Positions 19,205 to 34,564 of a stretch of 64,000 bases of DNA are shown in pieces. The stretch's first letter is position 1, and each line of letters starts with the position of its first letter. The stretch lies in IMG/VR virus record IMGVR_UViG_3300035181_001974; one strand, 5' to 3'. The stretch comes from a virus. The notes below the pieces were generated by a model that saw only the letters and a list, made by a program, of their open reading frames with translations, had not been told where the DNA came from and did no database searches. The position numbers were made by a program, and so were the translations under genes.

Positions 19205-20227
19205 ATGAAGACTGTCCTCGTCACGGGAGCCGCTGGTTTTCTGGGTTCGCACTTGATGCTACATCACTTGAGGGCGGGTGACAAGGTCCTCGGCCTCGAC
19301 AATTTCTGTTCGTCGAAGCCGGAGTCGATTCAGGTCGATGAGATCAAGAAGTTTCCGCTGGCGACGTTGATGTACTGCGATATCGCTGACGTCCATGGAG
19401 ACAGTCGCTTTAGTCGCGTGATTCACGATTACGACACCGGGTCGATGCACTCGGTACGCTTCGACATCATCTACAACTTCGCCTGCCCAGCATCGCCGCC
19501 CATCTACCAGCGCATGCCCGTGGAGACCATGATGACCTGTACGCTAGGCGTCCAGAACGTCCTGGAACTGGCGGCATCGCATGGATCGATCGTGGTCCAC
19601 GCTTCGACTTCTGAGGTCTATGGTGATCCCGAGAGTTCGCCGCAGGTCGAGTCATACCGAGGTCGCGTCAACTCCTACGGGCCCAGAGCCTGTTACGACG
19701 AGGGAAAACGTGCGGCAGAGGCCCTGTGCTATGACTACCTACATACCCACGGTGTCGACGCTCGCATGGTCCGGATCTTCAACACCTACGGTCCGCACAT
19801 GGACCCATACGATGGCCGGGTCGTCAGCAATTTCATCGTCCAGGCCTTGAAGGGCGAGAAGTTGACGATCTACGGTGACGGTCAACAGACACGTAGCTTT
19901 TGTTACGTGGACGACCTGATCAAAGGCATTGTGACCTTGGGCGATCTGGGCAACAACCCGCGGATGCCCATCAACCTCGGCAACCCGCACGAGTTCACGA
20001 TGAATCAGTTGGCGAAGGAGGTCATTCACCAAATCTACGGTGGGCGCGAGGCACCTCACCGCGATGTGGCCCGTTGGTTTGACTACAAACCGCTGCCTGT
20101 CGATGACCCGACGCAGCGTCGGCCCGACATCACCCAAGCCCAGAATCGTCTAGGGTGGGAGCCCAAGGTGCAGCTCGCAGAAGGCCTCAAACGTTCCATC
20201 GATTACTTCCGGAAGGTCATCGCCTAG
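19205..20227 (+). CDS. uxs: UDP-glucuronate decarboxylase (UDP-xylose synthase, UXS)
   Basis: Rossmann VLVTGAAGFLGSHL; UXS-diagnostic blocks ASTSEVYGDPE, GPRACYDEGKR, RIFNTYGP, DGRVVSNFIVQALKGEKLTIYGDGQQTRSFCYVDDL, INLGNPHEFT, RRPDITQAQNRLGWEP, YFRK. Confidence 0.85.
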   Translation: MKTVLVTGAAGFLGSHLMLHHLRAGDKVLGLDNFCSSKPESIQVDEIKKFPLATLMYCDIADVHGDSRFSRVIHDYDTGSMHSVRFDIIYNFACPASPPIYQRMPVETMMTCTLGVQNVLELAASHGSIVVHASTSEVYGDPESSPQVESYRGRVNSYGPRACYDEGKRAAEALCYDYLHTHGVDARMVRIFNTYGPHMDPYDGRVVSNFIVQALKGEKLTIYGDGQQTRSFCYVDDLIKGIVTLGDLGNNPRMPINLGNPHEFTMNQLAKEVIHQIYGGREAPHRDVARWFDYKPLPVDDPTQRRPDITQAQNRLGWEPKVQLAEGLKRSIDYFRKVIA

Positions 20228-20301: not shown

Positions 20302-20622
20302 TTGCATCGTTGTTTCATAGCTCGTCACCCAGCTGAAGCCCACCTGGAACAAGCTGCCCAAGTGGCTCCGCGTGCTGATACCCATTGGTATGGCCACGTT
20401 GCCGCAGATCGCCGACATGGCCGGCTTGGTACACACCAGATTTTCGTTCACGATGAAAGCGTGTACTACGAAATTAAGGGAAGGTGGTCTGACAAGGCGT
20501 GCTATCAGCTTGCACTGATGCGAATCAAGTTTCCTGAAGTGACTATCGTGGTCATTGACGGTGTCCAGTACCGTCAATTGGGTCTACAGTACCGTGACAA
20601 GGTAAGGTGGGAAGGTAAATGA
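20302..20622 (+). CDS. small PD-(D/E)xK-like ORF upstream of dnaE (possible homing-endonuclease relic)
   Basis: IFVHDESVYYEIKGRWSDK...TIVVIDG resembles the nuclease cores of HEG at 22907 ([12 protein letters not shown]...VVVASG) and the relic at 29868 (VYVEVKGWWRDD). Confidence 0.35.
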   Translation: MHRCFIARHPAEAHLEQAAQVAPRADTHWYGHVAADRRHGRLGTHQIFVHDESVYYEIKGRWSDKACYQLALMRIKFPEVTIVVIDGVQYRQLGLQYRDKVRWEGK

Positions 20623-20676
20623 CGCAGCAAGGAAAGGAGGACGCCAAGGGAAGCTCGGTGCGAGTGCCCCGACGAT

Positions 20677-22362
20677 TTGTCGGTTTGCACAACCACACGG
20701 GCTTCTCGTAATGCGCCCTTCGATGGTTTGGGCTATCCCGATGAACACTTCAAGTGGTGCATGGAGAACGGGCTCGATGGCCATGCCATCACCGAGCACG
20801 GGAACATGAACTCCTATGCCCACGCTCAACTGTGGGTCGAGGAGTGGGCCAAGGCCAATAAGGGAAAGTCGTTCAAGTACATTCCCGGCGTCGAGGCGTA
20901 CTACCATCCCGACCTGGAGCAATGGAAGAAGGACGTCGAACTCGCAGAGCAGGCGAAGGGAGACAGGAGGGTTGCGGCCAAGCTTGCTAAGGAGCAGGAA
21001 AAGCTGCAGACCAAGATCATCGCCACCATCGATGAAAATGATGAGACTGAGGACATTGAGATGTCCAACGCCTTGACTGTCGAAAACGAGGAAGAGTCCA
21101 AATCGACCAAACACTTCAATCCCGTCAACCGACGGCATCACCTAGTCATTCTGCCCAAGAACCAGAAGGGCCTGTTGGCGATCTTCGCAGCATGTTCGAA
21201 GGGATTCTTGAAGGGCTTCTACAAGTTCCCGCGCATTGACCATGCTGTCCTCAAAGAGGCAGCCAAAGGCGGCGACATCATCGTCAGCAGCGCTTGTATC
21301 GGCGGCATGCCGGCGTACTCCATATTCCAGGAAATCCAACAGTACAAGTTTGACGAGCTCGACGCACGGTTGCTCAGTGACCCTGTGCTGCTCGAGAAAT
21401 GCGTTGTCGCGGTGGGCAATACCTACCAGCACATGGTCGATGCAGTCGGCGAAGGAAACTACTTCCTCGAGCTGCAGTTCAATCGCCTACCGGCGCAGAA
21501 CCTCGTCAACCGCGCGATCCTGGAGTTCGCTCGTCGCAATGGGCTCAACAAGCAGCTGATCGTCACCGGCGATGCTCACTACTATAATCCCGATCGTTGG
21601 AAGGACCGTGAGCTCTACAAGCGCCTGGGTTGGATGAACTACCAGGAGATCAATCCTGACGCGATTCCGAAGTCGAAGGATGAGCTGAAGTGTGAGCTCT
21701 ATCCGAAGAACGCCCAACAGATGTGGGATGAGTACCAGCGCTCCAAGGAAGGCACCGACTGGTATGACGATGAAGTCGTCTGTGACGCCATTGAGCGGAC
21801 TCACGATATCGCACACAGTGTCATCGGGGAGATTCCACCCGATCGTTCGCCCAAGTTTCCGACGAGGTTGTTGGTGCCCGAAGGCACGACCTCGTTCAAT
21901 CACCTCATCTCGCTTTGTAAGGTGGGCATGGTGAAGCGTGGTCTTCAAGACAAGCCAGAGTATATCGCGCGCCTCAAGGAGGAACTCGGCGTCATTAAGG
22001 TGATGAAAAACTCTGACTACTTCATTTCCTACCAGAAGATCATGGAGCTGGCACGCAATGTGTGCCTTACCGGCCCAGCCCGCGGTTGTTTCGTTCCTGA
22101 GACGCGGGTTCTAATGGCTGACGGCATGCATGCTCCCATTGGCACCATCAAGGTGGGCGACGTTATCAAGGATGCATATGGTGTTGATCAGATGGTGACT
22201 CAGATCTTCAGGTATCAGGTTGATGAGGAGCTGCTAGAACTCGAGTTTGATGACGGTAAGAAGATCAGGTGCACCAAGGAGCATAAGTTTCTGACGAAGA
22301 ATCGTGGGTGGATTGAAGCACAACACTTGACTGAAGATGATGACCTAATCGAGGTTGAATGA
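20677..22362 (+). CDS. dnaE: DnaE N-terminal extein (PHP + palm start) fused to N-intein 1; true start at 20618 in another frame (frameshift)
   Basis: frame A 20618..20710 encodes MTQQGKEDAKGSSVRVPRRFVGLHNHTGFS* (PHP motif), frame of ORF continues NAPFDGLGYPDEH...; N-intein 1 = 22087..22359 (CFVPETRVLMADG...LIEVE). Confidence 0.8.
   Translation: MSVCTTTRASRNAPFDGLGYPDEHFKWCMENGLDGHAITEHGNMNSYAHAQLWVEEWAKANKGKSFKYIPGVEAYYHPDLEQWKKDVELAEQAKGDRRVAAKLAKEQEKLQTKIIATIDENDETEDIEMSNALTVENEEESKSTKHFNPVNRRHHLVILPKNQKGLLAIFAACSKGFLKGFYKFPRIDHAVLKEAAKGGDIIVSSACIGGMPAYSIFQEIQQYKFDELDARLLSDPVLLEKCVVAVGNTYQHMVDAVGEGNYFLELQFNRLPAQNLVNRAILEFARRNGLNKQLIVTGDAHYYNPDRWKDRELYKRLGWMNYQEINPDAIPKSKDELKCELYPKNAQQMWDEYQRSKEGTDWYDDEVVCDAIERTHDIAHSVIGEIPPDRSPKFPTRLLVPEGTTSFNHLISLCKVGMVKRGLQDKPEYIARLKEELGVIKVMKNSDYFISYQKIMELARNVCLTGPARGCFVPETRVLMADGMHAPIGTIKVGDVIKDAYGVDQMVTQIFRYQVDEELLELEFDDGKKIRCTKEHKFLTKNRGWIEAQHLTEDDDLIEVE
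22087..22359 (+). other. N-intein 1 (91 aa), followed by stop
   Basis: C1 after GPARG; block A CFVPETRVLMADG..GTIKVGDVI; block B TKEHKFLT. Confidence 0.8.
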
Positions 22363-22446
22363 AACTCAACTAAGTTTACCTGATCCTCGTCAAATGTCTA
22401 TTAGACAGGGATCTCAAGGCTTACATGAAGAGAGCGAACGCATATC

Positions 22447-22944
22447 ATGAAGCTCAGAAGTAAGACTGTCGTACCGTATAAGGGTGAGGTCGTAGACCTG
22501 TGTGTGGAAAACAGCCACACTTACAACGTGGAAGGTATTGCAGTCCACAATTCGGGCGGTGGCTCTCTGGTCGCCTACGTCCTATACATCACCGACTTGG
22601 ACCCGTTGTTCTGGGACCTGCCTTTCGCGCGATTCCTTAGCGTTCACAGGTGTCTGTCGCCAGACACAAAGGTATTGATGTCAGATGGTTCGTCGTCCGC
22701 GCTTCGAGACGTGAAAGTCGGTGACAGCGTTGTCTCACAGGATGGCTCACACCGTAAAGTTACGTTCACCATGACCACAAAACATGAGAAGACGTACCGC
22801 GTGAAGGTGAATGGTACTACGTTCACGTGTTCTGAAAATCATGTGTGGTTGACAGTGGGTCCTGATGGACAACCTGTGAAGAAGTATACATCTGAGCTGT
22901 CGACGAGTGACGAGCTGTACACGTACCACTATGAGCATCATTGA
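22447..22944 (+). CDS. dnaE: C-intein 1 (22447..22551) + extein 2 (22552..22650) + N-intein 2 (22651..22941)
   Basis: [35 protein letters not shown]|[33 protein letters not shown]|[13 protein letters not shown]... Confidence 0.8.
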
Positions 22945-23872
22945 GAAACAGTGTAAACACTGTGGTATTATGTTTCAGTTCAACTATGAGCCCAACTGCA
23001 AGGGTTCTGGTAGTAGGCTCCATCGCCCGTACTGCACTGATGAGTGTGCCGTCGCTCACAGGAAGCTGATGTCACACGCTCCCATGCCCTCGAGGCTTGT
23101 GAAGACGTGCGTCGAGTACGGCGATGAGTTCTACGTTCCAAAGTGTCACAACAACAGAAAACTATGTTCGAATGCGTGCAGGCACAAGTACACTGCGAAA
23201 GCGCTGACAAAGAATGAGCTCCGTACACTGACATGTGTACAGTGTCTAGGCACTTTCTCAACGAAGAACGTCAATCGCAGGTTCTGTTCACCCAAATGTT
23301 TCGCTGCATCGAGGTTTGACCGCCACACGTTGGTATGCGAAGTTTGTAGCGAACCGATCGTCACCAAGAAGAGCTACGTGCCGCGGTTCTGTTCCAAACG
23401 GTGCACCCGCGAGGCACAGTCACGTGATATGGTTGCTTCACATGTGAACGGACGCTCGTGTTTTCGTTCCGACATCCTAAACAGCCCGTACTTCAAGAGC
23501 TCGTTCGAAGCCGACTACTACAGATATTGCTTGCACCTCGGTAAGATGCCATTCTATGAACATAGGTCTTTCCATGTTGTCATCGATGGCAAAGAGAAGT
23601 GTTACACTCCAGACTTTTGGTTCAGTGATGAGGACCGATACGTGGAGTTGAAAGGTGTGCGAGAAGGCAAATCGCGTTTCTCAAAGTTGCTTAACTCAAA
23701 CGCACGTTCACGGGAAGTCGTTGTGGCGTCTGGTCAGCGCATCGACGTCGTGTACATGAATGACTTCTATGGTGAACTTCGTCGACAAGGTTTGTACCAT
23801 ACGATTGCCAATCTAGAGCACAGGGACTATGCAGGAACCCAACATCTCATCAGCAAGCACGGCCAAAATTGA
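22907..23872 (+). CDS. free-standing homing endonuclease (multi CxxC zinc-ribbon + PD-(D/E)xK core) between halves of intein 2
   Basis: six or more CxxC pairs; C-terminal [17 protein letters not shown] = PD..(D/E)xK motif; nested between N- and C-intein 2. Confidence 0.65.
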
Positions 23873-24566
23873 AGCTATCGAGGTTGTCGATGAAAGTGTA
23901 GAACTCATCGACATCGAGGTCGAAGGCCAGCATACGTTTTGGGTGTCCAACAACGATAGCGATTGGGTGCTGACACATAACTCTGGTGCTCCTGATATCG
24001 ACTGCGTCCACGAGGACCATCTTGTCGTCATGACAGACGGCACTCATAAGCGAGCTGTTGACATCATTGTCGGCGACGTCGTCCTGGGAGGCGATGGAAT
24101 GCCACACGCAGTAACTGCGACCTATGCTAGAAATTTGCGGCCATTCGAGGACGCTGTCTGGGTCAGAGTTAGGGCCAATGATGGTACGTTGGGCCACATT
24201 TTGGTGGTGCCCGGTCACAAATTTGTCAGAGCTGACGGCGTCATCGTGTACTGCCGCGACCTTAAGGTCGGAGATGAATTGATGGCATCATGCGGCAGCG
24301 TTGAGGTCGTATCGATCGAGCACGGTGGTTGGGGCTCTTCCAACGCTAGATACGTCGACCTGACTGTTGAAGACGATCACAGATTCCACGTGGTACCGTT
24401 CAATACGTCCATTCTAAGTGGAGGTGATCCATCACATGACGTCGGTTATTGCATGGGCGTCATTCCTGGCACGTTCCTTGCGTGTGGCGAAGGAGACAAT
24501 TTTTGCAGCGATTGGTGCGCGTCTAAGAGAAGAACAGACCACAGCGAGCGCAACTATGAAATTTGA
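23829..24566 (+). CDS. dnaE: C-intein 2 (to 23981) + extein 3 SGAPDID (23982..24002) + N-part of intein 3 (24003..24563)
   Basis: ...VELIDIEVEGQHTFWVSNNDSDWVLTHN|SGAPDID|CVHEDHLVVMTDGTHKRAVDIIVGDVV...PGHKFV...RYVDLTVEDDHRFHVV then a non-extein-like tail. Confidence 0.7.
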   Translation: MQEPNISSASTAKIEAIEVVDESVELIDIEVEGQHTFWVSNNDSDWVLTHNSGAPDIDCVHEDHLVVMTDGTHKRAVDIIVGDVVLGGDGMPHAVTATYARNLRPFEDAVWVRVRANDGTLGHILVVPGHKFVRADGVIVYCRDLKVGDELMASCGSVEVVSIEHGGWGSSNARYVDLTVEDDHRFHVVPFNTSILSGGDPSHDVGYCMGVIPGTFLACGEGDNFCSDWCASKRRTDHSERNYEI

Positions 24567-24868
24567 GCTGGAGTTGGGACCGTGTCCGAGCAACGTTGAT
24601 GCGGTGCAGCTTACAGACAACGGCGATTCTGCCGAGCAGATGATGTGATAGTGTCTGGCCTGGAAAGAATAGCTCAGACGAGAGCTGCAGAAAATCCTGA
24701 ATTTCAAGATTGTCAGGTCAAACTGCGCGTTAAAGGGTTTGAGCACGATTTGGCCCCCATACTATGGGGCTACGTCGTGCGATGACGCCGACGCCGACGA
24801 GCGCACAATTGACGCCATCTTCTGGCTCAAAGAAAATGCGTCCTCAAAGTTTGACGATGACATTAGCG

Positions 24869-26602
24869 TCACGCTGTGACGTCTAAGACGTAGCGAGAGT
24901 TGCTACAGCCATAGATGCGATAAACGCCGGCAGCCTCCGCTACCTGTTTTTCTGTTAGACCTTGCTTCTTGTTGGCTCGGTACTTGAACCTGTCGTAACG
25001 ATGCATGAAGTCAGTCCACCAGAAGCGAGCGACTGTGGTACCGTTGAACTTCATGCCTGAGGTGGCATAACCGTTTCCTCCCAAGCGATTGTCTGAGTAA
25101 GACATCAACCTCGCTGCATTGTTTTCTCTTGCTATAGCTTTTGCCTTTGATAGCAATTTTGACACCCCGCCTCGTACATGTGTGCCAAGCTTGAAGCACA
25201 GGCGAGCGATCTCAATCGTCGTTCTGTCTGCCCCATTTCGTGCCCACCTAAGGCTGCAGGCGCCTACGATTTCGCCCGATGAGGTTACCAATCGCACGGC
25301 AAATTGGGCCCTCACGTGACCGTCGAGGTGGCACTGATTGATGAATTCTCGAACTTCTTCGGGCTCGCAGCGTTCTGCTTTCAACTTACGCGCATCGACT
25401 TTGGTAGAAAACCCAAGGCGATGGCGCAACATGCTTTCGATTATCGGTCGTTTGTCGCGCCACTCATCCTCAAATAACGTGAAAAGCGATACGCCGGCTT
25501 TGAGGGACAGCAATCTCTTCTTTTCCGCGTGATCGTGCTCAAATCTATTGGCGGCCTCGCTGTGCCAGTATAGGCCATTGCACTCGATGGCAAACATGCG
25601 CGATGGAATGAGTATGTCGAGCTCCATTCCGCCGAGCGTCTTACGATCGCTAAGGACTGCGTCAGGTGCCAGCGTCTGGATAAATGCGTAGACGTCCTGT
25701 TGCCACCTGCTCGTTTTGTCTGACCAAGGCGGAAAGCAGGTGGGACACTTGGCCTCGTTGTTGAACACTGCGCCAACGCAACGCTCAAATATTGTTGAAC
25801 ATATCGTGCATTCGATGCGCGCTTTGGTGACAGTATCGACATATTCGTCAATGAGTTTAAGCTGCTTTTCTTTGAGGCGTTTTTGTACCTCGTCGTGCGT
25901 CAGCAACTTTGCCTTGCGCATTTTTTCAAGCGTTACGTCGCTAAAGAATCGTCCTTTCAACGAAGCGCTGATCTTCTTACTGCGAGATTCAATGATGCTA
26001 GACGTATCCTTTGTCAGGCCAAGTGACCAGCCGCTGTGCGTTGCATAATACCTCCGCAGGCTGTCGCTGATTTTTGCCGCCTTTTGTTTAAGGCTTTCGT
26101 TGTTTTCCTTTGTCTTGTCGGAGTTGTGGTGACCGTGTTCCTTGTAGTGAGCTCGCATGTTTGCAGCACTGGCTGACATGCGTTCGTCATTGTCTTTCGT
26201 CAGGCCTTTGTTCCATGACGAGGTGCCCTTGGACGCGTATGCGTGTTTTCGGCTACAACGTGGACACCGTTCGGGGTATCCTTTTTCTTGATCGATGAAC
26301 CTGACCCAGTCGCAACAATCGATGCACGTCTTCCTGCACCCTGGGTACCTTGTTTCATACACAACGACGGGTGATTTTTGGTGCGTTTTTGTGCAGTGCA
26401 ATGTCAACTTACGCCCGCTGTCATATGACGCCTCACACCACGGACACGCGTAAGTTGACACCTGTTTGGGAGGCCTGGCGTCTTCTCGCCTGTGTCGTGC
26501 CTCGTGGATCTTCAATGCTCGTAGCGTTTCGTGGTTTCGACCACAACGAGCGCATGTAAATTCAACTGTAGTTGAGTTAGGATTCATGTGATGGTCGTTC
26601 AT
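24869..26602 (-). CDS. homing endonuclease: C2H2 zinc fingers + NUMOD3 + Vsr-like (DUF559/EDxHD-type) nuclease + C-terminal GNAT-like domain; inserted antisense inside intein 3
   Basis: FTCARCGRNHETLRALKIHEARH and YACPWCEASY..HCTKTH fingers; NUMOD3-like GHHNSDKTKENNESLKQKAAKIS; nuclease core ELDILIPSRMFAIECNGLYWHSE...D; C-terminal RGGVSKLL...RFWWTD shared with 27288..29087. Confidence 0.7.
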   Translation of the reverse strand: MNDHHMNPNSTTVEFTCARCGRNHETLRALKIHEARHRREDARPPKQVSTYACPWCEASYDSGRKLTLHCTKTHQKSPVVVYETRYPGCRKTCIDCCDWVRFIDQEKGYPERCPRCSRKHAYASKGTSSWNKGLTKDNDERMSASAANMRAHYKEHGHHNSDKTKENNESLKQKAAKISDSLRRYYATHSGWSLGLTKDTSSIIESRSKKISASLKGRFFSDVTLEKMRKAKLLTHDEVQKRLKEKQLKLIDEYVDTVTKARIECTICSTIFERCVGAVFNNEAKCPTCFPPWSDKTSRWQQDVYAFIQTLAPDAVLSDRKTLGGMELDILIPSRMFAIECNGLYWHSEAANRFEHDHAEKKRLLSLKAGVSLFTLFEDEWRDKRPIIESMLRHRLGFSTKVDARKLKAERCEPEEVREFINQCHLDGHVRAQFAVRLVTSSGEIVGACSLRWARNGADRTTIEIARLCFKLGTHVRGGVSKLLSKAKAIARENNAARLMSYSDNRLGGNGYATSGMKFNGTTVARFWWTDFMHRYDRFKYRANKKQGLTEKQVAEAAGVYRIYGCSNSRYVLDVTA

Positions 26603-27445
26603 TCATTTTTGGCGTCCAACAAGAGCGTCGTTGTTCACAACACCGATCTTGCCAGGCGAGATGAGGTTCTTGATGAACTTCGAAACTTTTTTGGGTGGGA
26701 AAACGTCGTTCCCATCAGCAATTATAACTGTTTCAAACTAAAAACGCTTGTAAAGGATATCGGCAAGTTCTACGGCATCCCATTCGAGGAGACCAACGCT
26801 GCCACGCGGACCGTCGAGGACGAGGTCCGTAAGGCGACGATGAAGGAAGGCGACGACAAGAATCTGTTCGTCTTGACCTACGATGAGGCCATGGCCTTCC
26901 ACTGCAGGGCTCCTAAGGGCCCGGAGTCGAAGTCCATCTGCCAGGGCTGTAGCCCAGAGTGTAAGCAGCCGGTCAGCCCGTCGTTTCGCGGCTTCATTGA
27001 GAAGTACCCGGTCGTCGCCGAGTCGATCAAGATCCTCTTCAAGCAGAATCGTAGTCTCGGTCGTCACGCGGGTGGTGTGCTGATTGCAGACGATTTGCCC
27101 AACAAGATGCCTTTGGTGACGTCCAAAGGCAAGGCCGGCGTCCGCGAGCCACAGTCACCTTGGGTCGAGGGCGTAAATTATAAACACCTTGAGAAGATCG
27201 GAGAGTTCATCAAGTACGACCTCCTAGGTCTAGAAACGATGCGGCTCATCGAGCGCGCCATCGAGCTCATCATCAAAAAGGAACGACATGAAAGAGGGTG
27301 GTTTGAGATCCAACTCGACGATGGAACGACACGAGGCGTCTACGGCGACCAACGAATCGTCACCAGCAACAGGGGCACCATCCTTGCGAGGGAGCTCGGG
27401 CCCGGCGATGACATCGTGTCCTTCGAGGTGCCCACAGTGCAATGA
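26588..27445 (+). CDS. dnaE: very short C-part of intein 3 (at most 22 codons, ..HSFLASNKSVVVHN) + extein 4 (DnaE palm/fingers segment)
   Basis: VVVHN|TDLARRDEVLDELRNFFGWENVVPISNY..KTLVKDIGKFYGIPFEE aligns to E. coli [48 protein letters not shown]; later RHAGGVLIA, KYDLLGLETMRLIERAIELI; in-frame stop 3 codons upstream of the first listed start. Confidence 0.75.
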   Translation: MMVVHSFLASNKSVVVHNTDLARRDEVLDELRNFFGWENVVPISNYNCFKLKTLVKDIGKFYGIPFEETNAATRTVEDEVRKATMKEGDDKNLFVLTYDEAMAFHCRAPKGPESKSICQGCSPECKQPVSPSFRGFIEKYPVVAESIKILFKQNRSLGRHAGGVLIADDLPNKMPLVTSKGKAGVREPQSPWVEGVNYKHLEKIGEFIKYDLLGLETMRLIERAIELIIKKERHERGWFEIQLDDGTTRGVYGDQRIVTSNRGTILARELGPGDDIVSFEVPTVQ

Positions 27446-29087
27446 TCCATTGCGAAAAGCTAGCCTAAATTCGCTCCGCGCACATCTCCTTAAAAAGCAC
27501 GGGCTCAATGCGGAGGCTGCGTACCTTCTTTTTCGAGAGCACCCTGGACCGTGCGTTCAGTGTTCAGGGCCGGTCAAGTTCATGACCTTTCAAACGGGAT
27601 ATGAACGTCTCTGTGGAGTTTGTAGCAAGAAGAACTCTCAAGTAAGAGGTGCGCTTAGCCGGAAATCAAAATCATTGCCTGCATGGAACAAGGGGCTGTC
27701 AGAAACAACGTCTGAATCGGTTCGAAGGGCCGCACAAGGTTGTCGTGATTTCATCAAAAAACACGGGCACTGGAGAACAGGACAAACTAAAGAAAATAAT
27801 GAATCTATCACAAGAGCTGCGCATAACATCTCTCGAGCATTGACTGAAAAATGGCAAGTAGAAAAACACTGGACGCAGCACGGTCAGACGTCAGAAACTG
27901 ACGATAGGATCAAACGGCGATCAGAACGGATCGGCGAAGGCGTTCGCTTGAATCATTGGTCTCGGAACGCTAATTCTGAAGATATCAAACGTTCGATCAT
28001 CGAGACTAGAAAACGCCTTATCGAGAACGGCACTAACTCTCCTTTTCGGTTGTCTCTCGAAGAGGTCGAACGGCGAGTTGATGCACTGCGGTCGAGGTGG
28101 AACATCGAAAAATTTGAGTTTGCTGGATACTCAACACCGGTGCATGTGACATGCGTCAGTTGTAACGTACCTGATATTGTTCCCTTTAACGTCCTTTACA
28201 AGGGAAAGGTGTGTTCAACGTGCTACCCGGCTAATTTCTCTCGCTGGCATCGTGAGGTGTTCGATTTCTTCGTCAAGCTCGATTCGAACGCCATCGCCAA
28301 CGACAGACAGTCAATCGCGCCTTATGAGCTGGACATCGTGTCAGGTAACGGAAGGATTGCCATCGAGTGCAACGGTGTCTATTGGCACAGTGAGGCGACC
28401 GGTACTCCACCATCGTATCACCAAGACAAGTCGACTCGCGCTCTTGAGCGTGGTGTGTCGTTGCTACATATCTTCGACGATGAATGGCACCATGATGTAA
28501 AGAAAAACATCATCAAAAGCATGATCAGGGTAAAGCTTGGTCTTGCTACTCGCGTGATGGCACGAAAGCTACATCTTCGCAGCGGTCGTCCAGCCATCAC
28601 CGCTCAGTTCATGGCGAACAATCACCTCGATGGAAACACTCCTTCGTCGCATTCGTTCTGGCTAGAGGACATTGCTGGAAACATTATTTGTGCATTGACA
28701 TTGCGAAAACCGCACCAGCAGACTAAGTGGGGATCTAAGACAATTGAATTGGCGCGGGTTTCAACGGCCCGCGATACCATCGTCGTTGGAGGCATGTCGC
28801 GGTTGATCAACGCTGCCAGGGATTGGTCACGTGAGCATGGTTACCAAAAAATGATCACATACCGTGACATGAGGTTGGGTGGCACTGGCCGGGCGTATGA
28901 ACTATCTGGTTTTAGATTTGATCACATGACGCAGCCTAGGTTTTGGTGGACGGACGGACAAAATCGTATCGATAGATTTGCTGTCAGGGCGATTCCGGGG
29001 ATCGCATCACAAGAAGAGATGGCGATGGAACACAGGCTTTTTAAGATCTTTGGTTGCTCCAACGCGGTGTACGTTATGGACCTGTGA
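27411..29087 (+). CDS. homing endonuclease (paralog of 24869..26602) inserted directly in the dnaE extein; ORF track start 27288 is probably an overlap artefact
   Basis: Zn-finger/NUMOD3-like N-terminus, Vsr-like core ELDIVSGNGRIAIECNGVYWHSE, C-terminal GGMSRLI...RFWWTD...FGCSNAVYVMDL domain. Confidence 0.65.
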   Translation, partial: TSCPSRCPQCNDPLRKASLNSLRAHLLKKHGLNAEAAYLLFREHPGPCVQCSGPVKFMTFQTGYERLCGVCSKKNSQVRGALSRKSKSLPAWNKGLSETTSESVRRAAQGCRDFIKKHGHWRTGQTKENNESITRAAHNISRALTEKWQVEKHWTQHGQTSETDDRIKRRSERIGEGVRLNHWSRNANSEDIKRSIIETRKRLIENGTNSPFRLSLEEVERRVDALRSRWNIEKFEFAGYSTPVHVTCVSCNVPDIVPFNVLYKGKVCSTCYPANFSRWHREVFDFFVKLDSNAIANDRQSIAPYELDIVSGNGRIAIECNGVYWHSEATGTPPSYHQDKSTRALERGVSLLHIFDDEWHHDVKKNIIKSMIRVKLGLATRVMARKLHLRSGRPAITAQFMANNHLDGNTPSSHSFWLEDIAGNIICALTLRKPHQQTKWGSKTIELARVSTARDTIVVGGMSRLINAARDWSREHGYQKMITYRDMRLGGTGRAYELSGFRFDHMTQPRFWWTDGQNRIDRFAVRAIPGIASQEEMAMEHRLFKIFGCSNAVYVMDL

Positions 29088-29105
29088 AAGTACCTTTACA
29101 AAGAC

Positions 29106-29582
29106 ATGGCAAAAGTCGTTGCTAACGTTGACGCACATACAAATGCGGTATCATTCAATGACATCAAGACCTGGTTCGAGCAGCACATGCACCCGGCCGT
29201 CATTGATTTCACCGATCCCAAACCTTACGAGGTCTACGAGAAAGGCAAGTGGGCAGGCATCTTCCAGTGCGTCGACCAGGACACGGCAGTGCTGATGGGC
29301 GATGACTCGTACAAGTTGATCAAGGACGTCCATGTCGGTGACGAGGTGACGGTCTTCGATGAAGTCAAGCAGCAGTTCACCACATCAGTCGTCGACGTCG
29401 TTTACGACCAAGGACCCAAGGAGTGCATCGAGCTCGTGTTCGACGACGGCAAGAAGCTTGTCTGCACCGCTGATCATCCCATCTTGACGAAGAATCGCGG
29501 GTGGGTTGAGGCACAGCACCTAACCGAAGACGACGAGTTGATTGGGTCTAGCAGTGGTTACGAAGCTCGTGGATTGACGTGA
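29106..29582 (+). CDS. dnaE: extein 5 (29106..29267) + N-intein 4 (29268..29579)
   Basis: AVIDFTDPKPYEVYEKGKWAGIFQ|CVDQDTAVLMGDDSYKLIKDVHVGDEV...; N-intein 4 tail (LVFDDGKKLVCTADHPILTKNRGWVEAQHLTEDDELI) is paralogous to the N-intein 1 tail. Confidence 0.75.
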   Translation: MAKVVANVDAHTNAVSFNDIKTWFEQHMHPAVIDFTDPKPYEVYEKGKWAGIFQCVDQDTAVLMGDDSYKLIKDVHVGDEVTVFDEVKQQFTTSVVDVVYDQGPKECIELVFDDGKKLVCTADHPILTKNRGWVEAQHLTEDDELIGSSSGYEARGLT

Positions 29583-29666
29583 GGCGGGCGTTTTGGTCGC
29601 AGGTTTCGCCGCGACCGTGGCCATGTCGCCTTACAGAGACGCAACAGGCCCACGACTCCGCAACAT

Positions 29667-30056
29667 GTGATTGTACGGACGCGCTCCGCTCATCGTAGCG
29701 CCCCTTTGTACTTTCTGCACTCAGCGGGCAACGGGAACGGAAAGAATGGCGTCGTCGACCTGTATGACAACTGGCGTCATTGCATGGACGAGGGCTTCAG
29801 CGAGGAGGAGATCAGGATCCAGCTCACAAGAGAGGCGTACATGATCTTCCATCGTCAATGACCGACGTTGGAGCTCTTTAAGCGGGTGTACGTGGAAGTC
29901 AAGGGCTGGTGGCGTGATGATGCTAGGGAGAAGTTTGACGCATTCGTAACGTTGCATCCGACGCTCAAGTGTGCACTTGTCAGTGGATATGACCTACAGT
30001 TGCTAGAAAAGAAGGAGACGACGCTTGAAGCTTGTGTCATCACGCAGCGTGGGTAA
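29667..30056 (+). pseudogene. decayed homing-endonuclease relic (PD-(D/E)xK core) between halves of intein 4, with in-frame TGA at 29859..29861
   Basis: ...MIFHRQ*PTLELFKRVYVEVKGWWRDDAREKFDAF resembles [15 protein letters not shown] of HEG 22907; far too short for a functional HE. Confidence 0.5.
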
Positions 30057-30624
30057 GCGCCACGTCTACGACATCGAGGTGCGAAATCATCATAATTTCG
30101 TCGCTAACGACGTCGTTGTTCACAATTGCACGGGCCAGGGCGCTCAGCGACTCTTTGTCAAAGGCAAGCCCAAGAGCATCATCGACATCGCGACGCTGAC
30201 CAGCATCTATCGCCCGGGTCCCTTGGCCGCCAAAGTCGATCGACTGTACTTGGAGGCGAAGAATGACGGCAAGGAGTTGGAGTGGGGCGATCACCGCGTC
30301 AACGACATCCTGAAGAAGACATACTCGTGTTTGACGGGTGACACACATATCCTTACTGAGCAAGGTGAGGTTCCCATTAGACAAATCGTTGAACAAGGAA
30401 TGGTGGGAACTAAGCTTCCGTCATACAATGAAATGACGAAGACCGTCGAGATGGACGAAGTTGTCGCTGTCGCCTCAAACGGCGTACGTGACATCATCGA
30501 GGTTGAGCTGGAGGGTGGAGAAACTTTGTCTTTGACTGAAGATCACCTTGTCATGACGCCTCGTGGTTGGGTGCAAGCAGGTGAACTGACGTCTGAAGAC
30601 GAGATTTTGGGAATGAAGTACTGA
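30025..30624 (+). CDS. dnaE: C-intein 4 (30025..30126) + extein 6 (30127..30327) + N-intein 5 (30328..30621)
   Basis: MKLVSSRSVGKRHVYDIEVRNHHNFVANDVVVHN|CTGQG..IATLTSIYRPGPLAAKVDRLY...KKTYS|CLTGDTHILTEQGEVP...; IYRPGPL matches DnaE ALFRPGPL. Confidence 0.8.
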   Translation: MKLVSSRSVGKRHVYDIEVRNHHNFVANDVVVHNCTGQGAQRLFVKGKPKSIIDIATLTSIYRPGPLAAKVDRLYLEAKNDGKELEWGDHRVNDILKKTYSCLTGDTHILTEQGEVPIRQIVEQGMVGTKLPSYNEMTKTVEMDEVVAVASNGVRDIIEVELEGGETLSLTEDHLVMTPRGWVQAGELTSEDEILGMKY

Positions 30625-30630
30625 AACCAG

Positions 30631-30830
30631 GCTACTTCGTCGTGCCATCACTCAACCTCATCATCGAGTACGACGGCGACTATTGGCACAGTAACCCAGC
30701 GAAGCATGAACTAACACCTGCGATGAAGAAGCAATTTAGGCTTGATCAATTATGGACGCTTGCCACAAGAACTTGAGGCTTCACGGTGTACCGCGTCTGG
30801 GAGTCTGATGCCTTGAACTATCACCTCAAA
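30631..30830 (+). pseudogene. Vsr-like (DUF559/EDxHD-type) nuclease-core relic with in-frame stop, between halves of intein 5
   Basis: YFVVPSLNLIIEYDGDYWHSNPAKHE...RLDQLWTLATRT*GFTVYRVWESD matches only the catalytic core of HEGs 24869/27411/31990; no DNA-binding region. Confidence 0.5.
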
Positions 30831-30847
30831 TTGAGGACAATTTAGAC

Positions 30848-31093
30848 ATGAAGATTGATGATTTTGAAGAGGAGTTGCTTACGTCGTTCAAGAACTTTAT
30901 CAACACGATGAAGTCACATACGGCATTTGGAAAGCGTGATGATCTCACGTATGCCGACTGGTTCGACACATTTCGAGCTTATGAAGAGGTCGGAAATGAT
31001 ATGGAGCTCGAATACCATGGTCAACGTGTTTTGAGTGTTGATGGACCAGTGTGCCAACTCTGCGCATCATCATTGAACATGAAAGAAAAATGA
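30848..31093 (+). CDS. hypothetical small protein inside intein 5 gap
   Basis: 81-aa ORF. Confidence 0.35.
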   Translation: MKIDDFEEELLTSFKNFINTMKSHTAFGKRDDLTYADWFDTFRAYEEVGNDMELEYHGQRVLSVDGPVCQLCASSLNMKEK

Positions 31094-31094
31094 T

Positions 31095-31412
31095 ATGAGC
31101 GCAGATCTTTACACTAGCGAGATCGATGACGATGTTTATGGATCTCTAACGCTAGAGATGAACGTTCATGGGAATTTGCGAATCATTGCATATGATCCTG
31201 GGACTAGAGATTTGGTAGGTTGCTGTCAGTTTCCACCCTCGCATGAGGGTTTCAACGAAGCCCAACGATTGATCAACGCTTTGCAAGAATGGATGCGTCA
31301 TGTGGGGGAAAATCTCAACCCTTGCCGAGTCGTTCTAGGCAGTGATGCTTTGTCGCGCTCAATGTCATTACACATTGTTTGTCAGACTCATCGTGAAACG
31401 GAGCGTAAGTGA
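31095..31412 (+). CDS. hypothetical small protein inside intein 5 gap
   Basis: 105-aa ORF, start 1 nt after previous stop. Confidence 0.35.
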   Translation: MSADLYTSEIDDDVYGSLTLEMNVHGNLRIIAYDPGTRDLVGCCQFPPSHEGFNEAQRLINALQEWMRHVGENLNPCRVVLGSDALSRSMSLHIVCQTHRETERK

Positions 31413-32110
31413 TGCCTGACGTAGTTCCCGTCAAGATCCGTGCGATCAAGCGTGTTCCTGCACAGCCTGTGTACGACATCCAGGTCAAGAAGAACAACAA
31501 CTTCTTCGCAAATGGCCTTCTCGTGCATAACTGCATAATTTTTCAGGAACAGGTGATGGAACTCGCCGAGAAGGCTGCCGGCTTCCCGAAGGACAAGTGT
31601 GACGAGGTCCGTCGCGCAATCATGAAGCGCAGCATCTCGGGCGGTGAGGCGGCAAAGAAGGCAGCCCAAGAGACCCGTGACGGGTTCGTCAAGGGTTGCA
31701 TCGCCAACGGTTATACCGAGAAGGTGGCCAACAACCTCTACGACAAGATTCTGTACTTCGCGGGCTACGGCTTCAATAAAAGTTTGTACTTTTCGGAACC
31801 AGTAAATACCTTTTTTTCAGACGGCACGTTCAAAGAGACAAAGCAGCTTCAACACATCGAACCCGGCGACCTGGTCATGTCTCGTGATGAGAATTCAGGT
31901 AAAAACATCCTCGTCCCTGTTGTTGCAAAACACGACCACGGTGAGCTAGACTTGGTAGAAGTGGAGTTGGTGACCGGAGAGAAGGTAAAGTGCACGTGGG
32001 ATCACAAGTTCAGGACGAAGGAGACAAACGAGATGTTGCCCCTGTGGATGATTGCCGAACGGGGCCTCAGCATCGTTGTGACCGATGTAGCAGGCTCTTC
32101 GTCTACCTGA
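31409..32110 (+). CDS. dnaE: C-intein 5 (31409..31531) + extein 7 (31532..31780) + N-intein 6 (31781..32107, Ser1)
   Basis: ...PVYDIQVKKNNNFFANGLLVHN|CIIFQEQVMELAEK...KILYFAGYGFNK|SLYFSEPVNTFFSDGTFKE...TWDHKF; extein matches E. coli GIILYQEQVMQIAQ...VEKFAGYGFNKS. Confidence 0.8.
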   Translation: MMPDVVPVKIRAIKRVPAQPVYDIQVKKNNNFFANGLLVHNCIIFQEQVMELAEKAAGFPKDKCDEVRRAIMKRSISGGEAAKKAAQETRDGFVKGCIANGYTEKVANNLYDKILYFAGYGFNKSLYFSEPVNTFFSDGTFKETKQLQHIEPGDLVMSRDENSGKNILVPVVAKHDHGELDLVEVELVTGEKVKCTWDHKFRTKETNEMLPLWMIAERGLSIVVTDVAGSSST

Positions 32111-33039
32111 AGGCCTACGAAAAACACCAAGCTAGGTGCCAAGGATTCATACTCGGTGACAGTGAGAGTGTCACATGCCAAGTCTGTGGCTTCACGGGTA
32201 AGGCACTGGCAAAGCACTTGTCGGGGACGCATGGTATGAGCAAAGAAGAATACCTGAAAGCGTACCCGACTGCCGCAATCACATCGAAAGTCTCGACAGC
32301 GCGTTTCAAGCATCGTGGGCAGAATTTCGCCTGGCTCAAACGAGCGAAGGCACGCGGTGATGATTTGACTGCCTACAAGGAAAAGATGGGCCGTGCGGTC
32401 AGTGAGGCCATCACGAGCAATCCGGGCGAGAGGAAACGTCGCTCTGAACTAATGGGAGAACTTAATCGACGACCTGAAGCCCGTAAACGTTCATCAGACG
32501 TTGCAAGACTAACGTCAACCCGGCCTGAGATACTCAAGGCACGTGCTGAGCGCCTGGCCCGTTGGCGTGAGTTGAACCCCGATGAGTTCTACGAAAAGTG
32601 CACAAAAGCTGCACATGCTATTTGGCATAGCATTCCGGAATTAGCGTTGTTTGATTTGTTGAAAAACGTTGAAGGTTATGATTTTGTTCATAATCAGGTC
32701 GTCAAGTCAGTTGCTTTTCCAAACAAATCTAAAAGAAAGCAAGTTGACATTGCCGATCGATCAAGACACATTTATGTTGAATTTGATGGAATCATCCATT
32801 TTAATGCACGTATTAAAGGCGAGGATAATTTTGAACGAGTGAAGTGCATGGATGCAATGCTTGATGATTACATCACTAAACATGATTGGACACTCATTCG
32901 AATTTCTTACGATCAGTTCTCATACAAGGATGGCGGTCGCTTCGAACCTGATTGCTTGAAAAAGCTTTTTGAGATCCTGAAAGATCCTCGACCTGGCGTT
33001 CATCGGATAGGAAAAGCGTATGAAAAGACCGCCGTTTGA
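31990..33039 (+). CDS. free-standing homing endonuclease (Zn finger + basic NUMOD-like linker + Vsr-like core) between halves of intein 6
   Basis: CDRCSRL..HQARCQ and CQVCGF..H finger; core HIYVEFDGIIHFNARIKGEDN...LIRISYDQF (DUF559/Vsr pattern). Confidence 0.65.
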   Translation: MHVGSQVQDEGDKRDVAPVDDCRTGPQHRCDRCSRLFVYLKAYEKHQARCQGFILGDSESVTCQVCGFTGKALAKHLSGTHGMSKEEYLKAYPTAAITSKVSTARFKHRGQNFAWLKRAKARGDDLTAYKEKMGRAVSEAITSNPGERKRRSELMGELNRRPEARKRSSDVARLTSTRPEILKARAERLARWRELNPDEFYEKCTKAAHAIWHSIPELALFDLLKNVEGYDFVHNQVVKSVAFPNKSKRKQVDIADRSRHIYVEFDGIIHFNARIKGEDNFERVKCMDAMLDDYITKHDWTLIRISYDQFSYKDGGRFEPDCLKKLFEILKDPRPGVHRIGKAYEKTAV

Positions 33040-33244
33040 AATCGCACTGAATGACATTGCCCAACGCATGGGTCTGAGTCCGATCGAACTGTTACGGGCC
33101 GCGGCACGTTACCGACGCAAAAGCGAAACGAAGGTTGAACTCCAGCCGACTGACGAGTACATTGAAGAAGAGTATGCTAAAGCAATGCTTGATGAACCGA
33201 ACGCAGGAGCGATCGAAGACCTGTTGAAGGACCTGCTCACATGA
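33020..33244 (+). CDS. hypothetical small protein
   Basis: 74-aa ORF between HEG6 and C-intein 6. Confidence 0.3.
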   Translation: MKRPPFEIALNDIAQRMGLSPIELLRAAARYRRKSETKVELQPTDEYIEEEYAKAMLDEPNAGAIEDLLKDLLT

Positions 33245-34371
33245 GTAACATCAAGTCTATCACACCCGTGGGTCGACACCAGACCTATGACCTCGAAGTC
33301 GATCACCCGGATCACCAGTTCTATCTCGCTAACGGGATACTGACGTCTAACAGCCATGCAGTGGCATACGCCATTGACAGCTTCTGGTGCGCCTGGCTGA
33401 TGACATATCACGAGGAGGAATGGCTGTGTGCCTATCTCGAAAGCATGTCGCACACTCCTGCTCAACGTGCTAAGGCGTTCAGCGAGGTAAAGGCCTTGGG
33501 CTATCAGATCGTCCCGATCGACATCAACCTGGCGGGGCTCGGGTGGACCGCGCTGCCCGGCAAGAAGTTGATGCCGTCGATGACGTCCTGCAAGGGTGTC
33601 GGCGACTCGGCGGTCGAAGAGATCATGGCCAACCGTCCCTACAACACTATCGAGGAGTTGCTGTGGGATGACAACTTCGAGTGGAAACACAGCAAGTTCA
33701 ACAAGAAGGCGATGGAGGCCCTGGTCAAGATCGGTGCCTTCGGCAGTATGGACATCGTGGGCGAAGGCAAGGTCTTCAACAACTATCATCACATGCACGA
33801 GGTCCTCTTCGGTTCTCACGTGGAGACCGTGACCAAGAAGCGCAAGGGCGTCGAGGTCACCGAAGAGGTCGACATCGATCACGGGGCGTTGATCAAGCGA
33901 CACCCGAAGTCTGACCCGCACGAGGGCCTTAAGAACTTCTACCAGTTGGTCAGGGACTACGCTGACATCGAGGACTGGTCGTCTTCTGAACGTGCTCAAA
34001 ATATGGTCGACGTCTTCGGTGCTTTGGACGTCACCGCCATGATTGACATCGAAATCTTGGCTGCCTTGGAGAAGAAGGGCGTCAATAGCATTGACGACCT
34101 GGAGCACGGTGACACGGCGGTCGTCTGGTTTGTCACGGCCCCTGTTGCTGCAAAGAAGGGTGGCAAGCCGGTGACGGGCATCAAGAAGAAGACCCGCAAT
34201 GGCAAGGAATATGTGCAAATCTTTGCGGTTGGACCCACTGGCAAGGCCACGAAGATTTCTGTCTGGGGCGGCAAGGAGCTTCCTGACCCCTTCATCCTGT
34301 GTTGTGCCGAGGTCAAGAGGGACGACTTTGGCGCGTCGACGACGGTCTGGAAGTTGAGGGAAATCACGTAA
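33241..34371 (+). CDS. dnaE: C-intein 6 (33241..33351, ends TSN) + extein 8 = DnaE C-terminal region (fingers end, OB domain)
   Basis: MSNIKSITPVGRHQTYDLEVDHPDHQFYLANGILTSN|SHAVAYAIDSFWCAWLMTYH..; LGYQIVPIDINLAG matches E. coli GLKILPPDINSG; KGVGDSAVEEIMANR matches KGVGEGPIEAIIEAR. Confidence 0.8.
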   Translation: MSNIKSITPVGRHQTYDLEVDHPDHQFYLANGILTSNSHAVAYAIDSFWCAWLMTYHEEEWLCAYLESMSHTPAQRAKAFSEVKALGYQIVPIDINLAGLGWTALPGKKLMPSMTSCKGVGDSAVEEIMANRPYNTIEELLWDDNFEWKHSKFNKKAMEALVKIGAFGSMDIVGEGKVFNNYHHMHEVLFGSHVETVTKKRKGVEVTEEVDIDHGALIKRHPKSDPHEGLKNFYQLVRDYADIEDWSSSERAQNMVDVFGALDVTAMIDIEILAALEKKGVNSIDDLEHGDTAVVWFVTAPVAAKKGGKPVTGIKKKTRNGKEYVQIFAVGPTGKATKISVWGGKELPDPFILCCAEVKRDDFGASTTVWKLREIT

Positions 34372-34564
34372 ACATAAAACCCATGTACACCTACGAACAG
34401 TTGATCGAGAAGATAGTCCGTGCCAAGGTCTCGCTGGCAACCACCGCGGGCACTCGGACTCGTGCCCAGCTGAATGCGATCACGAGGGCTACGCTCCGTG
34501 CAACTGTGGGGCCACGGCACACAACAGTCATATCTCTGCGTCTTTGGAGGACCTGAAGCTATGA

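Follow-up and report, generated by a model that had tools for sequence, protein, structure and literature searches.

A short stop-containing insert in phage dnaE genes: a candidate programmed ribosome hop associated with a homing endonuclease gene

For bacteria and phages, only one homologous family with efficient translational bypassing is known, that of phage T4 gene 60. In T4, a free-standing homing endonuclease gene, mobA, lies just upstream of an open reading frame (ORF) that carries a non-coding insert a few tens of codons from its start. [quoted passage not shown] An N-terminal extension comes with the cassette; an RNA structure lies 5′ of the site, and a Shine–Dalgarno (SD)-like element is present. 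The target is a metal-binding motif of a replication enzyme. In some lineages the endonuclease gene has become a pseudogene or has been lost while the insert stays, and the distribution is scattered. According to a 2022 survey, gene 60 homologues occur only in topoisomerase genes with MobA, and similar bypassing was unreported in other phages (bioRxiv 10.1101/2022.08.31.505936). A 2016 review knew of no natural in-frame stop-hop and called shorter-distance counterparts of bypassing 'long presumed' (PMC5009743). Here we describe a locus whose family shows counterparts of these T4 features, the 5′ end of dnaE in the IMG/VR virus record IMGVR_UViG_3300035181_001974. The stretch analysed, hereafter called the window, comprises 64,000 nucleotides (nt). 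Its dnaE is interrupted by the 7-nt insert TAATGCG, between a Ser and a Pro codon, and the relic of an endonuclease gene overlaps the start of the gene. Most probably this is the decayed copy of a new, independently evolved cassette that combines a bypass with a homing endonuclease. It would be the second natural system of its kind after phage T4 gene 60.

The two systems also differ. The host gene is dnaE, interrupted in its PHP domain, instead of a topoisomerase gene interrupted in its Toprim domain, and the endonuclease is a T7 endonuclease I-like PD-(D/E)xK enzyme instead of MobA. The dnaE gap measures 5–16 nt and is flanked by Ser TCN codons, whereas the gap of gene 60 is 50 nt long and uses GGA. 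There is no take-off hairpin as in gene 60 but one long-range helix whose 3′ arm ends in the take-off codon, and the SD-like element lies far upstream rather than inside the gap. Unlike in T4, the gene is not split by the endonuclease gene, and the two systems share no sequence homology. In our reading the dnaE cassette works like mobA/gene 60 of T4 but is no homologous member of that family.

The window dnaE opens with a 30-codon frame that encodes MTQQGKEDAKGSSVRVPRRFVGLHNHTGFS and ends in a stop codon. The continuation, PFDGLGYPDEHF...ITEHGNM, starts with PFDGLGYPDEHFKWCMENGLDGHAITEHGNM... in the next frame, within a 561-codon ORF (Table 1). A preliminary description of this DNA had already placed the PHP start and the rest of dnaE in different frames, and this was confirmed (30-codon frame to TAA 20709, continuation from CCC 20716). 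Its three explanations, a +1 frameshift, a sequencing error or a 5′ truncation, did not hold up. A search of 5.8 billion proteins yielded 468 DnaE relatives. The H-x-H...DG start of the PHP domain was present in 94 of the best 120 homologues, nearly always as ...RFVGLH-x-HTGFS-(P/A/T)-(F/Y)-DGLGYP and without a gap; about 100 homologues read ...RFVGLHNHTGFS-PFDGLG... across the site. In 51 distinct intact loci the second His codon and the Asp codon are always 18 nt apart; in one further locus, L081, they are 21 nt apart. Ungapped homologues and intact-locus spacing therefore give the window seven extra bases and not one, in a family whose inserts (5–16 nt) fall in all three frames. Nor is the gene truncated at its 5′ end. 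The Pfam PHP match covers residues 23–286 of the conceptually joined DnaE, so that the domain extends across the break. The sequences flanking the insert are conserved as one protein, and the homologues are collinear with it except for the insert.

The bare frame change, taken alone, would suggest a sequencing or assembly artefact, an explanation to which we give next to no credence. The best match in the protein search, P0001, is the window's own product (100% identity), called from MENGLDG by gene callers and recorded on 5–6 contigs of up to 309 kb. Two of these contigs agree with the window across the site, insert included: one in the Logan assembly of SRR11727985, with 1 mismatch to the window in 7240 nt, and one in JGI 3300036715, identical to the window over 3258 nt. 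Because independent assemblies carry the identical 7-nt insert, random sequencing error is excluded. In addition, 22 other variants with the same conserved logic came from many samples.

Table 1. Features of the window discussed in the text
Feature	Position	Strand	Remarks
Homing endonuclease relic, T7 endonuclease I-like PD-(D/E)xK	20430..20622	+	tblastn with five intact homologues
dnaE first coding segment	20619..20711	+	ATG 20619 to TCG 20708, 30 codons: N-terminal extension and RFVGLHNHTGFS of PHP motif I, then TAA 20709–20711
SD-like AAGGAGG	20634..20640	+	72 nt 5′ of take-off codon, 7 nt 5′ of helix
Helix 5′ arm (GGGAAGCUCGGUG)	20648..20660	+	RNAalifold, covariation
Helix 3′ arm (CACACGGGCUUCUC), A20697 bulged	20694..20707	+	ends at second base of take-off codon
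Putative take-off codon TCG (Ser30)	20706..20708	+	TCN directly before stop in 23/23 variants
Insert TAATGCG	20709..20715	+	TAA 20709–20711, U, putative landing codon GCG 20713–20715; not in ~94 homologous proteins or 51 intact loci
Resume codon CCC and rest of first dnaE segment	20716..22362	+	PHP and start of polymerase core, into N-half of first split intein
First split intein	N-half ends 22362; C-half from ATG 22447		no endonuclease gene between the halves
Second split intein	N-half ends 22944; C-half from 23829		endonuclease ORF 22907–23872
Third N-intein half	ends 24566		followed by 577-aa ORF 24869–26602 on the minus strand
599-aa endonuclease ORF	27288–29087		PHROG 3339, E 1e-59; further intein halves also follow

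These variants were found in two ways. The PHP motif was missing from the first 70 residues in 26 of the best 120 homologues, and the DNA was inspected for ten of them. Eight (P0001, P0025, P0031, P0052, P0053, P0059, P0079 and P0111) were interrupted at the same place and retained the motif upstream; the remaining two were intact dnaE genes with a mis-called start. The interruption explains why these dnaE genes, at least 8 among the 120 best homologues, are truncated by gene callers, a point of importance for annotating large-phage genomes. Further variants came from DNA-pattern scans of IMG/VR and JGI metagenomes. Together we obtained 23 distinct combinations of Ser codon and insert, in diverged uncultivated phages. 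In 12 variants the insert is in frame, in 6 it shifts the frame by +1 and in 5 by +2. Examples, given as Ser codon, insert and next codon, are the window (TCG, TAATGCG, CCC), L090 (TCG, TAGGTCG, CCT), L112 (TCG, TGATCG, GCC), L018 (TCC, TAGTGATCC, CCA), L089 (TCG, TAGTGAAACG, CCA), L106 (TCG, TAATAATATCA, GTA), L087 (TCC, TAGTTGAGATCT, CCT), L006 (TCG, TAGGGGATTTAATCA, CCC) and L026 (TCG, TGAAGACACTTAATCT, CCT). The peptide motif on the RFVGLHNHTGFS side is kept, with synonymous changes, in all interrupted relatives, including the 8 found without requiring the motif. The interruption pattern had no match in 185,579 bacterial and archaeal genomes, and no close relative was found among cultured phages; metagenomic viral contigs, of up to ~370 kb, appear to be the only known source of the lineage.

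The inserts follow simple rules. In all 23 variants the Ser codon is TCN with a stop codon directly 3′ (TAG in 11, TAA in 6 and TGA in 6), and a second stop is often present. The stop follows the Ser codon also in all 8 cases found without that search requirement. An AGY Ser codon followed by a stop was not found in the viral contigs, even though intact genes often use AGY. The triplet that closes the insert and abuts the resume codon is NCN in 23 of 23 variants (TCN 17, ACN 4, GCN 2). The third bases match as well: TCY at take-off goes with NCY at landing (11/11), and TCR goes with NCG (5), NCA (4) or NCT (3), never with NCC (12/12; Fisher p = 3e-4). The usual bacterial wobble ranges of tRNA-Ser(GGA) and tRNA-Ser(cmo5UGA) fit these pairs. 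Between the first stop and the landing triplet the gap is poor in C (4 C in 86 nt versus 24% in the flanks; p = 1.5e-6), and in 21 of the 23 variants the landing triplet is the first NCN after the Ser codon. Neither landing codon nor gap composition was required by any search, nor were the helix and the SD-like motif described below. We take these rules to be signatures of a peptidyl-tRNA that quits one codon and re-pairs at another.

Because the inserts occupy all three frames and contain TAA, TAG and TGA, no single frameshift or readthrough event suffices; hopping would yield the same consensus protein for every variant. The window alone would be compatible with a programmed +1 frameshift at UCG-UAA-U, giving ...GFS-NA-PFDG... 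with two extra residues, as its insert length is 7 = 6 + 1 and a stop codon in the A site is a classical +1 stimulator. We regard such a shift as very improbable. The tRNA-Ser cannot re-pair in the +1 frame (UCG to CGU), and the inserts of relatives in frame 0 (one or two stops) and in frame +2 are beyond rescue by a +1 shift. The two additional residues would lie between the metal-binding HxH and D, and the spacing of this motif is constant in all but one of the intact loci examined. Finally, no SD-like element is present at a prfB-type distance.

The interrupted genes also share an RNA structure. They alone have an N-terminal extension, which encodes the SD-like motif and the 5′ arm of this structure: their ATG lies 24–32 codons ahead of the second His, versus typically 12–14 in intact genes; the exception is L112, with 16. 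De novo prediction (RNAalifold, 84 nt upstream of the Ser codon) gave a 12-bp long-range helix. Its 5′ arm is formed by the E-N-S-V codons of the extension (consensus GAGAACUCNGUG) and begins 57 nt ahead of the Ser codon, and its 3′ arm, CAC-NGG-GUU-CUC, consists of the His-Thr-Gly-Phe codons and the first two bases of the Ser codon. A strong upstream partner for the 14 nt ending in the Ser codon was found in 24 of 24 interrupted sequences (median -17.1 kcal/mol, z -3.8 versus shuffles); the same test on 53 intact genes gave a median of -6.7 kcal/mol and a z of +0.2 (Mann-Whitney p = 3e-12), and the helix is absent from these 53. In the in-register alignment 91.7% of helix cells were paired, versus 82% in shuffled and 29–57% in slid alignments. 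Two-sided changes occurred at 7 of the 12 pairs (31 cells), a score reached by 0 of 500 shuffles. The compensations fall on synonymous sites: Phe TTC/TTT, Gly GGG/GGC, Thr ACN, and His CAC/CAT together with Val GTG/GTA. In L137, where the protein motif deviates (HDGSS), the upstream arm is altered to match (GACGACCCGUC). G-U pairs are frequent, which indicates a helix of the sense-strand RNA. The window helix has 13 bp with a bulge in a shifted register (9/12 pairs in the standard register) and a ΔG of -18.7 kcal/mol, and it encloses an inner hairpin.

A second shared element lies 5′ of the helix. In 15 of the 23 variants AAGGAGG(T) precedes the Ser codon by 69 or 72 nt, and one more variant has AAGGAG at 69 nt. 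Three others, from a distant clade, have AGGAG or AAGGAG at 75–79 nt; L018 has GGAGG within SEG, ~64 nt before the Ser codon. This SD-like motif is retained even where the encoded peptide differs (KEV versus KRS). Two roles for it were considered and rejected. Pairing with the landing region, as a 'splint', was not family-wide (median z -0.5). As a ribosome-binding site for a conserved GTG its spacing would be 13–17 nt; the GTG is accounted for by the helix because GTG/GTA covaries with CAC/CAT. In the minimum-energy fold of 20619–20740, GGAGG and the following CGC (20634–20643) pair with GCG and CCUUC (20713–20721). Such a pairing would bridge both sides of the insert, and it occurs in a few relatives, with the landing region TCT CCT TTY. 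L112 (Ga0181523_10139729; junction near 1180–1215) is the shortest in-frame variant and has no endonuclease gene upstream. It has gained an ATG 7 nt past its AAGGAGGT motif, and ribosomes could bind at this motif in the ordinary way to initiate there. Its nascent chain would be only 20 residues long when the hop occurs.

We propose the following mechanism. The insert separates Ser from Pro in HxHTGFS|PFDG, the PHP motif that is conserved best. The ribosome would pause with the Ser codon TCG in the P site and the stop codon TAA in the A site. At this point the ribosome would cover the 3′ arm of the helix but no longer the 5′ arm. As the arms pair again at the mRNA exit, they would draw the mRNA forward, as in translocation, and help peptidyl-tRNA-Ser to leave its codon; the helix would also compete for the first two bases of the Ser codon and block backward sliding. 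The tRNA, held in the P site, would re-pair at the first compatible NCN triplet downstream (GCG in the window), and decoding would restart at CCC to give the normal ...HNHTGFSPFDGLG... protein. The hop lengths of 5–16 nt are close to the 12–14 nt that full zippering of the helix would expose. A forward-pulling role has already been proposed for the 5′ stem-loop of gene 60 (bioRxiv 10.1101/2022.08.31.505936; 10.1101/2024.12.09.627546). The hop predicts the junction peptide ...HNHTGFSPFDGLGYPDEHFK, with FVGLHNHTGFSPFDGLGYPDEHFK as the expected tryptic peptide, whereas a +1 shift predicts FSNAPFDG. Several features by which bypassing is recognised are found here: an interrupted conserved ORF, a matched landing codon (in the family), a stop in the A site and a putative cis-acting RNA structure. 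Bypassing would further entail that one polypeptide is made across the gap.

Alternatively, dnaE could be a gene in pieces that does without hopping: a 30-residue peptide would be released at TAA 20709 and the polymerase started separately downstream. The polymerase would then either work without strand 1 and HxH of the PHP domain or bind the peptide non-covalently. Translation would restart at a split ribosome-binding site composed of helix and SD-like motif. Homing endonucleases are known to split genes whose products reassemble, as in nrdA/MobE and gene 39/60 (bioRxiv 10.1101/2022.08.31.505936), the strong stop signals, single or double, fit a genuine end of translation, and the helix would, on an inferred geometry, bring the SD-like motif near the sequence just past the gap. 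Start codons argue otherwise. An in-frame ATG or TTG lies in the gap of only 3 of the 23 variants (L125, L136 and L087), for which reason initiation within the gap was rejected; in the other 20 the junction and its vicinity lack an in-frame start codon. In L006, L138, L026, L102, L008 and L018 a stop in the dnaE frame immediately precedes the last triplet of the insert, and the next in-frame Met varies by lineage (MENGLD..., MSSYAH...). Separate initiation would also leave the Ser-like, wobble-matched NCN triplet and the avoidance of C in the gap unexplained. We consider a gene in pieces unlikely.

Several points weigh against the ribosome hop. All functional claims are inferred from sequence. 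The DNA patterns behind about two thirds of the variants demanded TCN and a stop, so that this rule is partly built into the sample, and the p-values are optimistic, as the variants are phylogenetically related. For 21 sequences the helix register was the one that fitted best over a range of 16 nt; for the remaining two it was set to -57. In 18 of the 23 it is -57, in which the main clade aligns naturally without gaps, and in the other five it is -60, -63 or -66. No structure comparable to the take-off hairpin of gene 60, spanning the gap, was found consistently across the variants. U or G follows the stop in most variants, which is not the weak termination context typical of recoding sites, and the hop leaves the SD-like motif unexplained. 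In the window itself the landing triplet GCG matches the TCG take-off codon at only two of three positions, and a cognate TCG lies out of frame at 20720–20722; the window copy could therefore hop poorly or mis-land.

The last two observations might also mean that the window copy is defective, its landing codon having mutated from TCG to GCG (the cognate out-of-frame TCG lies 5 nt later), and its dnaE a pseudogene or poorly expressed. Its endonuclease gene is clearly decayed, and its helix is more irregular than that of most relatives. We nevertheless think a defective copy improbable: the downstream frame is open for 549 codons, into a split intein, and the identical sequence was assembled from at least 3 samples, on contigs of up to 309 kb. 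A purine-first NCN landing triplet recurs in 6 of the 23 variant types, and the energy of the window helix is above the family median.

Many interrupted dnaE genes are directly preceded by an ORF of 217–263 codons whose stop overlaps the dnaE ATG (ATGA). The C-terminal domain of its product matches T7 endonuclease I (PDB 1M0D, E 9.5e-5; Pfam PF05367, E 1e-7 to 1e-6) and the endonuclease/resolvase families PHROG 9019/945. The N-terminal half contains Cys clusters of zinc-ribbon/NUMOD-like type and matches homing-endonuclease PHROGs. For the window, the preliminary description had suspected an endonuclease relic at the 5′ end of dnaE, in a nuclease-like ORF at 20302..20622. Such a relic, a PD-(D/E)xK remnant, is indeed present and tied to the insert, though only the C-terminal part of the ORF is nuclease-like: 20431–20619 corresponds to residues 201–263 of the intact 217–263-residue endonucleases (tblastn E 1e-19 to 1e-22), and no match to these was found by tblastn upstream of 20430. 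The relic consists of YTPDF (20430–20444) in frame 0 and VHDESVYYEIKGRW...RWEGK (20446–20619) in frame 1, and its stop TGA (20620–20622) overlaps the ATG of the 5′ segment of dnaE. Only the last ~64 endonuclease codons (residues ~199–263) are thus retained, with PD (YTPDF) and ExK (YYEIKG) in different frames. The mini-ORF is a relic and not a gene; intact relatives have the complete PD...(D/E)xK domain in one frame. A second upstream frameshift, with a frame-2 piece KPTWNKLPKW..., was rejected for want of tblastn support. The endonuclease C-terminus ...WEGK* (window 20608–20622) is kept in alleles that are otherwise only ~35–55% identical. A ribosome-binding site of the GGAAGG type and the ATGA overlap with the start of the dnaE 5′ segment fall within its codons, TGG GAA GGN AAA TGA, and the conservation may therefore be at the nucleotide level.

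The likeness of the mini-ORF to intein-associated endonucleases, which had also been pointed out, was borne out: the second split intein of the window dnaE contains an endonuclease to which the relic nuclease is related. The ORF between the two halves of that intein has the same nuclease domain (tblastn 40% over 78 aa, 23423–23656; PHROG 945). As the domain is common to both, one endonuclease family lives in dnaE in both an intein-based and a hop-based setting.

Endonuclease gene and insert tend to occur together. An endonuclease gene lies upstream in 13 of the 22 interrupted loci with enough upstream sequence, versus 2 of 51 intact loci. These two exceptions (L005/L012 and L025) have the endonuclease gene without insert, N-terminal extension or helix, and both encode the Ser as AGC and not as TCN. 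The AGC codon may be an alternative escape from self-cleavage, by recoding of the target. The endonuclease gene has decayed in L090 as well as in the window, and L114, which has none, has a junction identical to that of the endonuclease-bearing L102. On a neighbour-joining tree of the downstream part of DnaE the interrupted state is scattered, with at least 15 changes among 77 taxa. L138 and L005 are ~95% identical from ~100 nt past the junction but 60–75% identical or unalignable across endonuclease gene, extension and insert; this contrast indicates exchange of the cassette. The scatter and the L138/L005 pair form the pattern that would be expected if the cassette homes with co-conversion and its endonuclease gene decays afterwards. 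Between the window and its relatives, nucleotide identity around the cassette was only slightly raised and is not decisive. A gene resembling UDP-sugar epimerases/decarboxylases (19205–20227; Pfam GDP_Man_Dehyd, E 4e-47) lies upstream of the window dnaE, and the same gene is found upstream of dnaE in L018, L087, L088, L090, L120, L124 and L136. In the window and these diverged relatives it marks a fixed left boundary of the cassette insertion site.

From this pattern we judge relic and interruption to be two parts of one mobile cassette, which when intact would have five parts: the upstream endonuclease gene, the N-terminal extension, the insert, the SD-like motif and the 12-bp helix. By analogy with T4 mobA/gene 60, the insert would break the endonuclease recognition site in conserved DNA and render carriers immune; self-immunity, that is, blocked cleavage of the endonuclease's own target, would be the function of the insert. 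The co-occurrence of the two, the cassette exchange and the two AGC loci that have an endonuclease gene but no insert bear on this indirectly. We propose that the insert outlasts decay of the endonuclease gene because it gives immunity. Taken together, it seems fairly likely that these loci form a natural family of 5–16-nt stop-hops, driven by a helix at the mRNA exit and carried between phage dnaE genes by a PD-(D/E)xK homing endonuclease as an immunity device.

Other described systems share parts of this arrangement. Synthetic stop-hops in Escherichia coli are engineered sites that work at low efficiency; matched codons surround a stop, and 9 nt are decoded as a single amino acid (PMC5009743). 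They have the same codon-stop-codon logic: TCG TGA TCG of L112 is the exact textbook arrangement, and the dnaE inserts of 9 nt differ only by a second stop. Unlike these, the dnaE sites are natural and conserved and have a dedicated helix. The byps of Magnusiomyces capitatus mitochondria are likewise short inserts in essential genes that are tolerated by hopping, sometimes with take-off and landing codons matched at two of three positions (PMC5009743). In contrast to the dnaE inserts they are 27–55 nt long, place an unused sense codon in the A site, spread in the manner of GC clusters and depend on mitochondrial ribosomes, and they have neither an endonuclease nor an upstream helix. Fractured genes, known from metagenomic dnaE as split inteins with free-standing endonucleases (Dassa et al. 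2009, PMC2677866), show that phage dnaE is repeatedly invaded by homing endonucleases, and the remainder of the window dnaE is arranged in this way; there the break is mended by protein trans-splicing, whereas the 5′ interruption in the window has no intein. For gaps of hundreds of bases, Dassa et al. mentioned bypassing merely as an alternative that they thought unlikely (PMC2677866), and our full-text literature searches found nothing on bypassing in dnaE.

If the ribosome hop is real, the solution embodied by gene 60 was invented independently a second time, in the short-distance form that the recoding field has long expected. The 23 natural variants, differing in gap length, codon pair and helix, would provide a comparative system of ~100 nt for take-off, slide and landing, and would permit a direct test of mRNA refolding behind the ribosome as a driver of forward movement. 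Bypassing as immunity to an endonuclease would be a recurrent evolutionary solution and not a one-off.

Further downstream (22100–34400) the window dnaE has many more breaks, of the 'fractured gene' kind (Table 1). No tRNA genes were found in window positions 1–64000. A PHROG scan of ten large window ORFs revealed no phage hallmark genes, and most of the scanned ORFs had no PHROG match; the viral assignment rests on relatives in IMG/VR contigs of up to 369 kb. The polymerase pieces of dnaE extend to ~34.4 kb.

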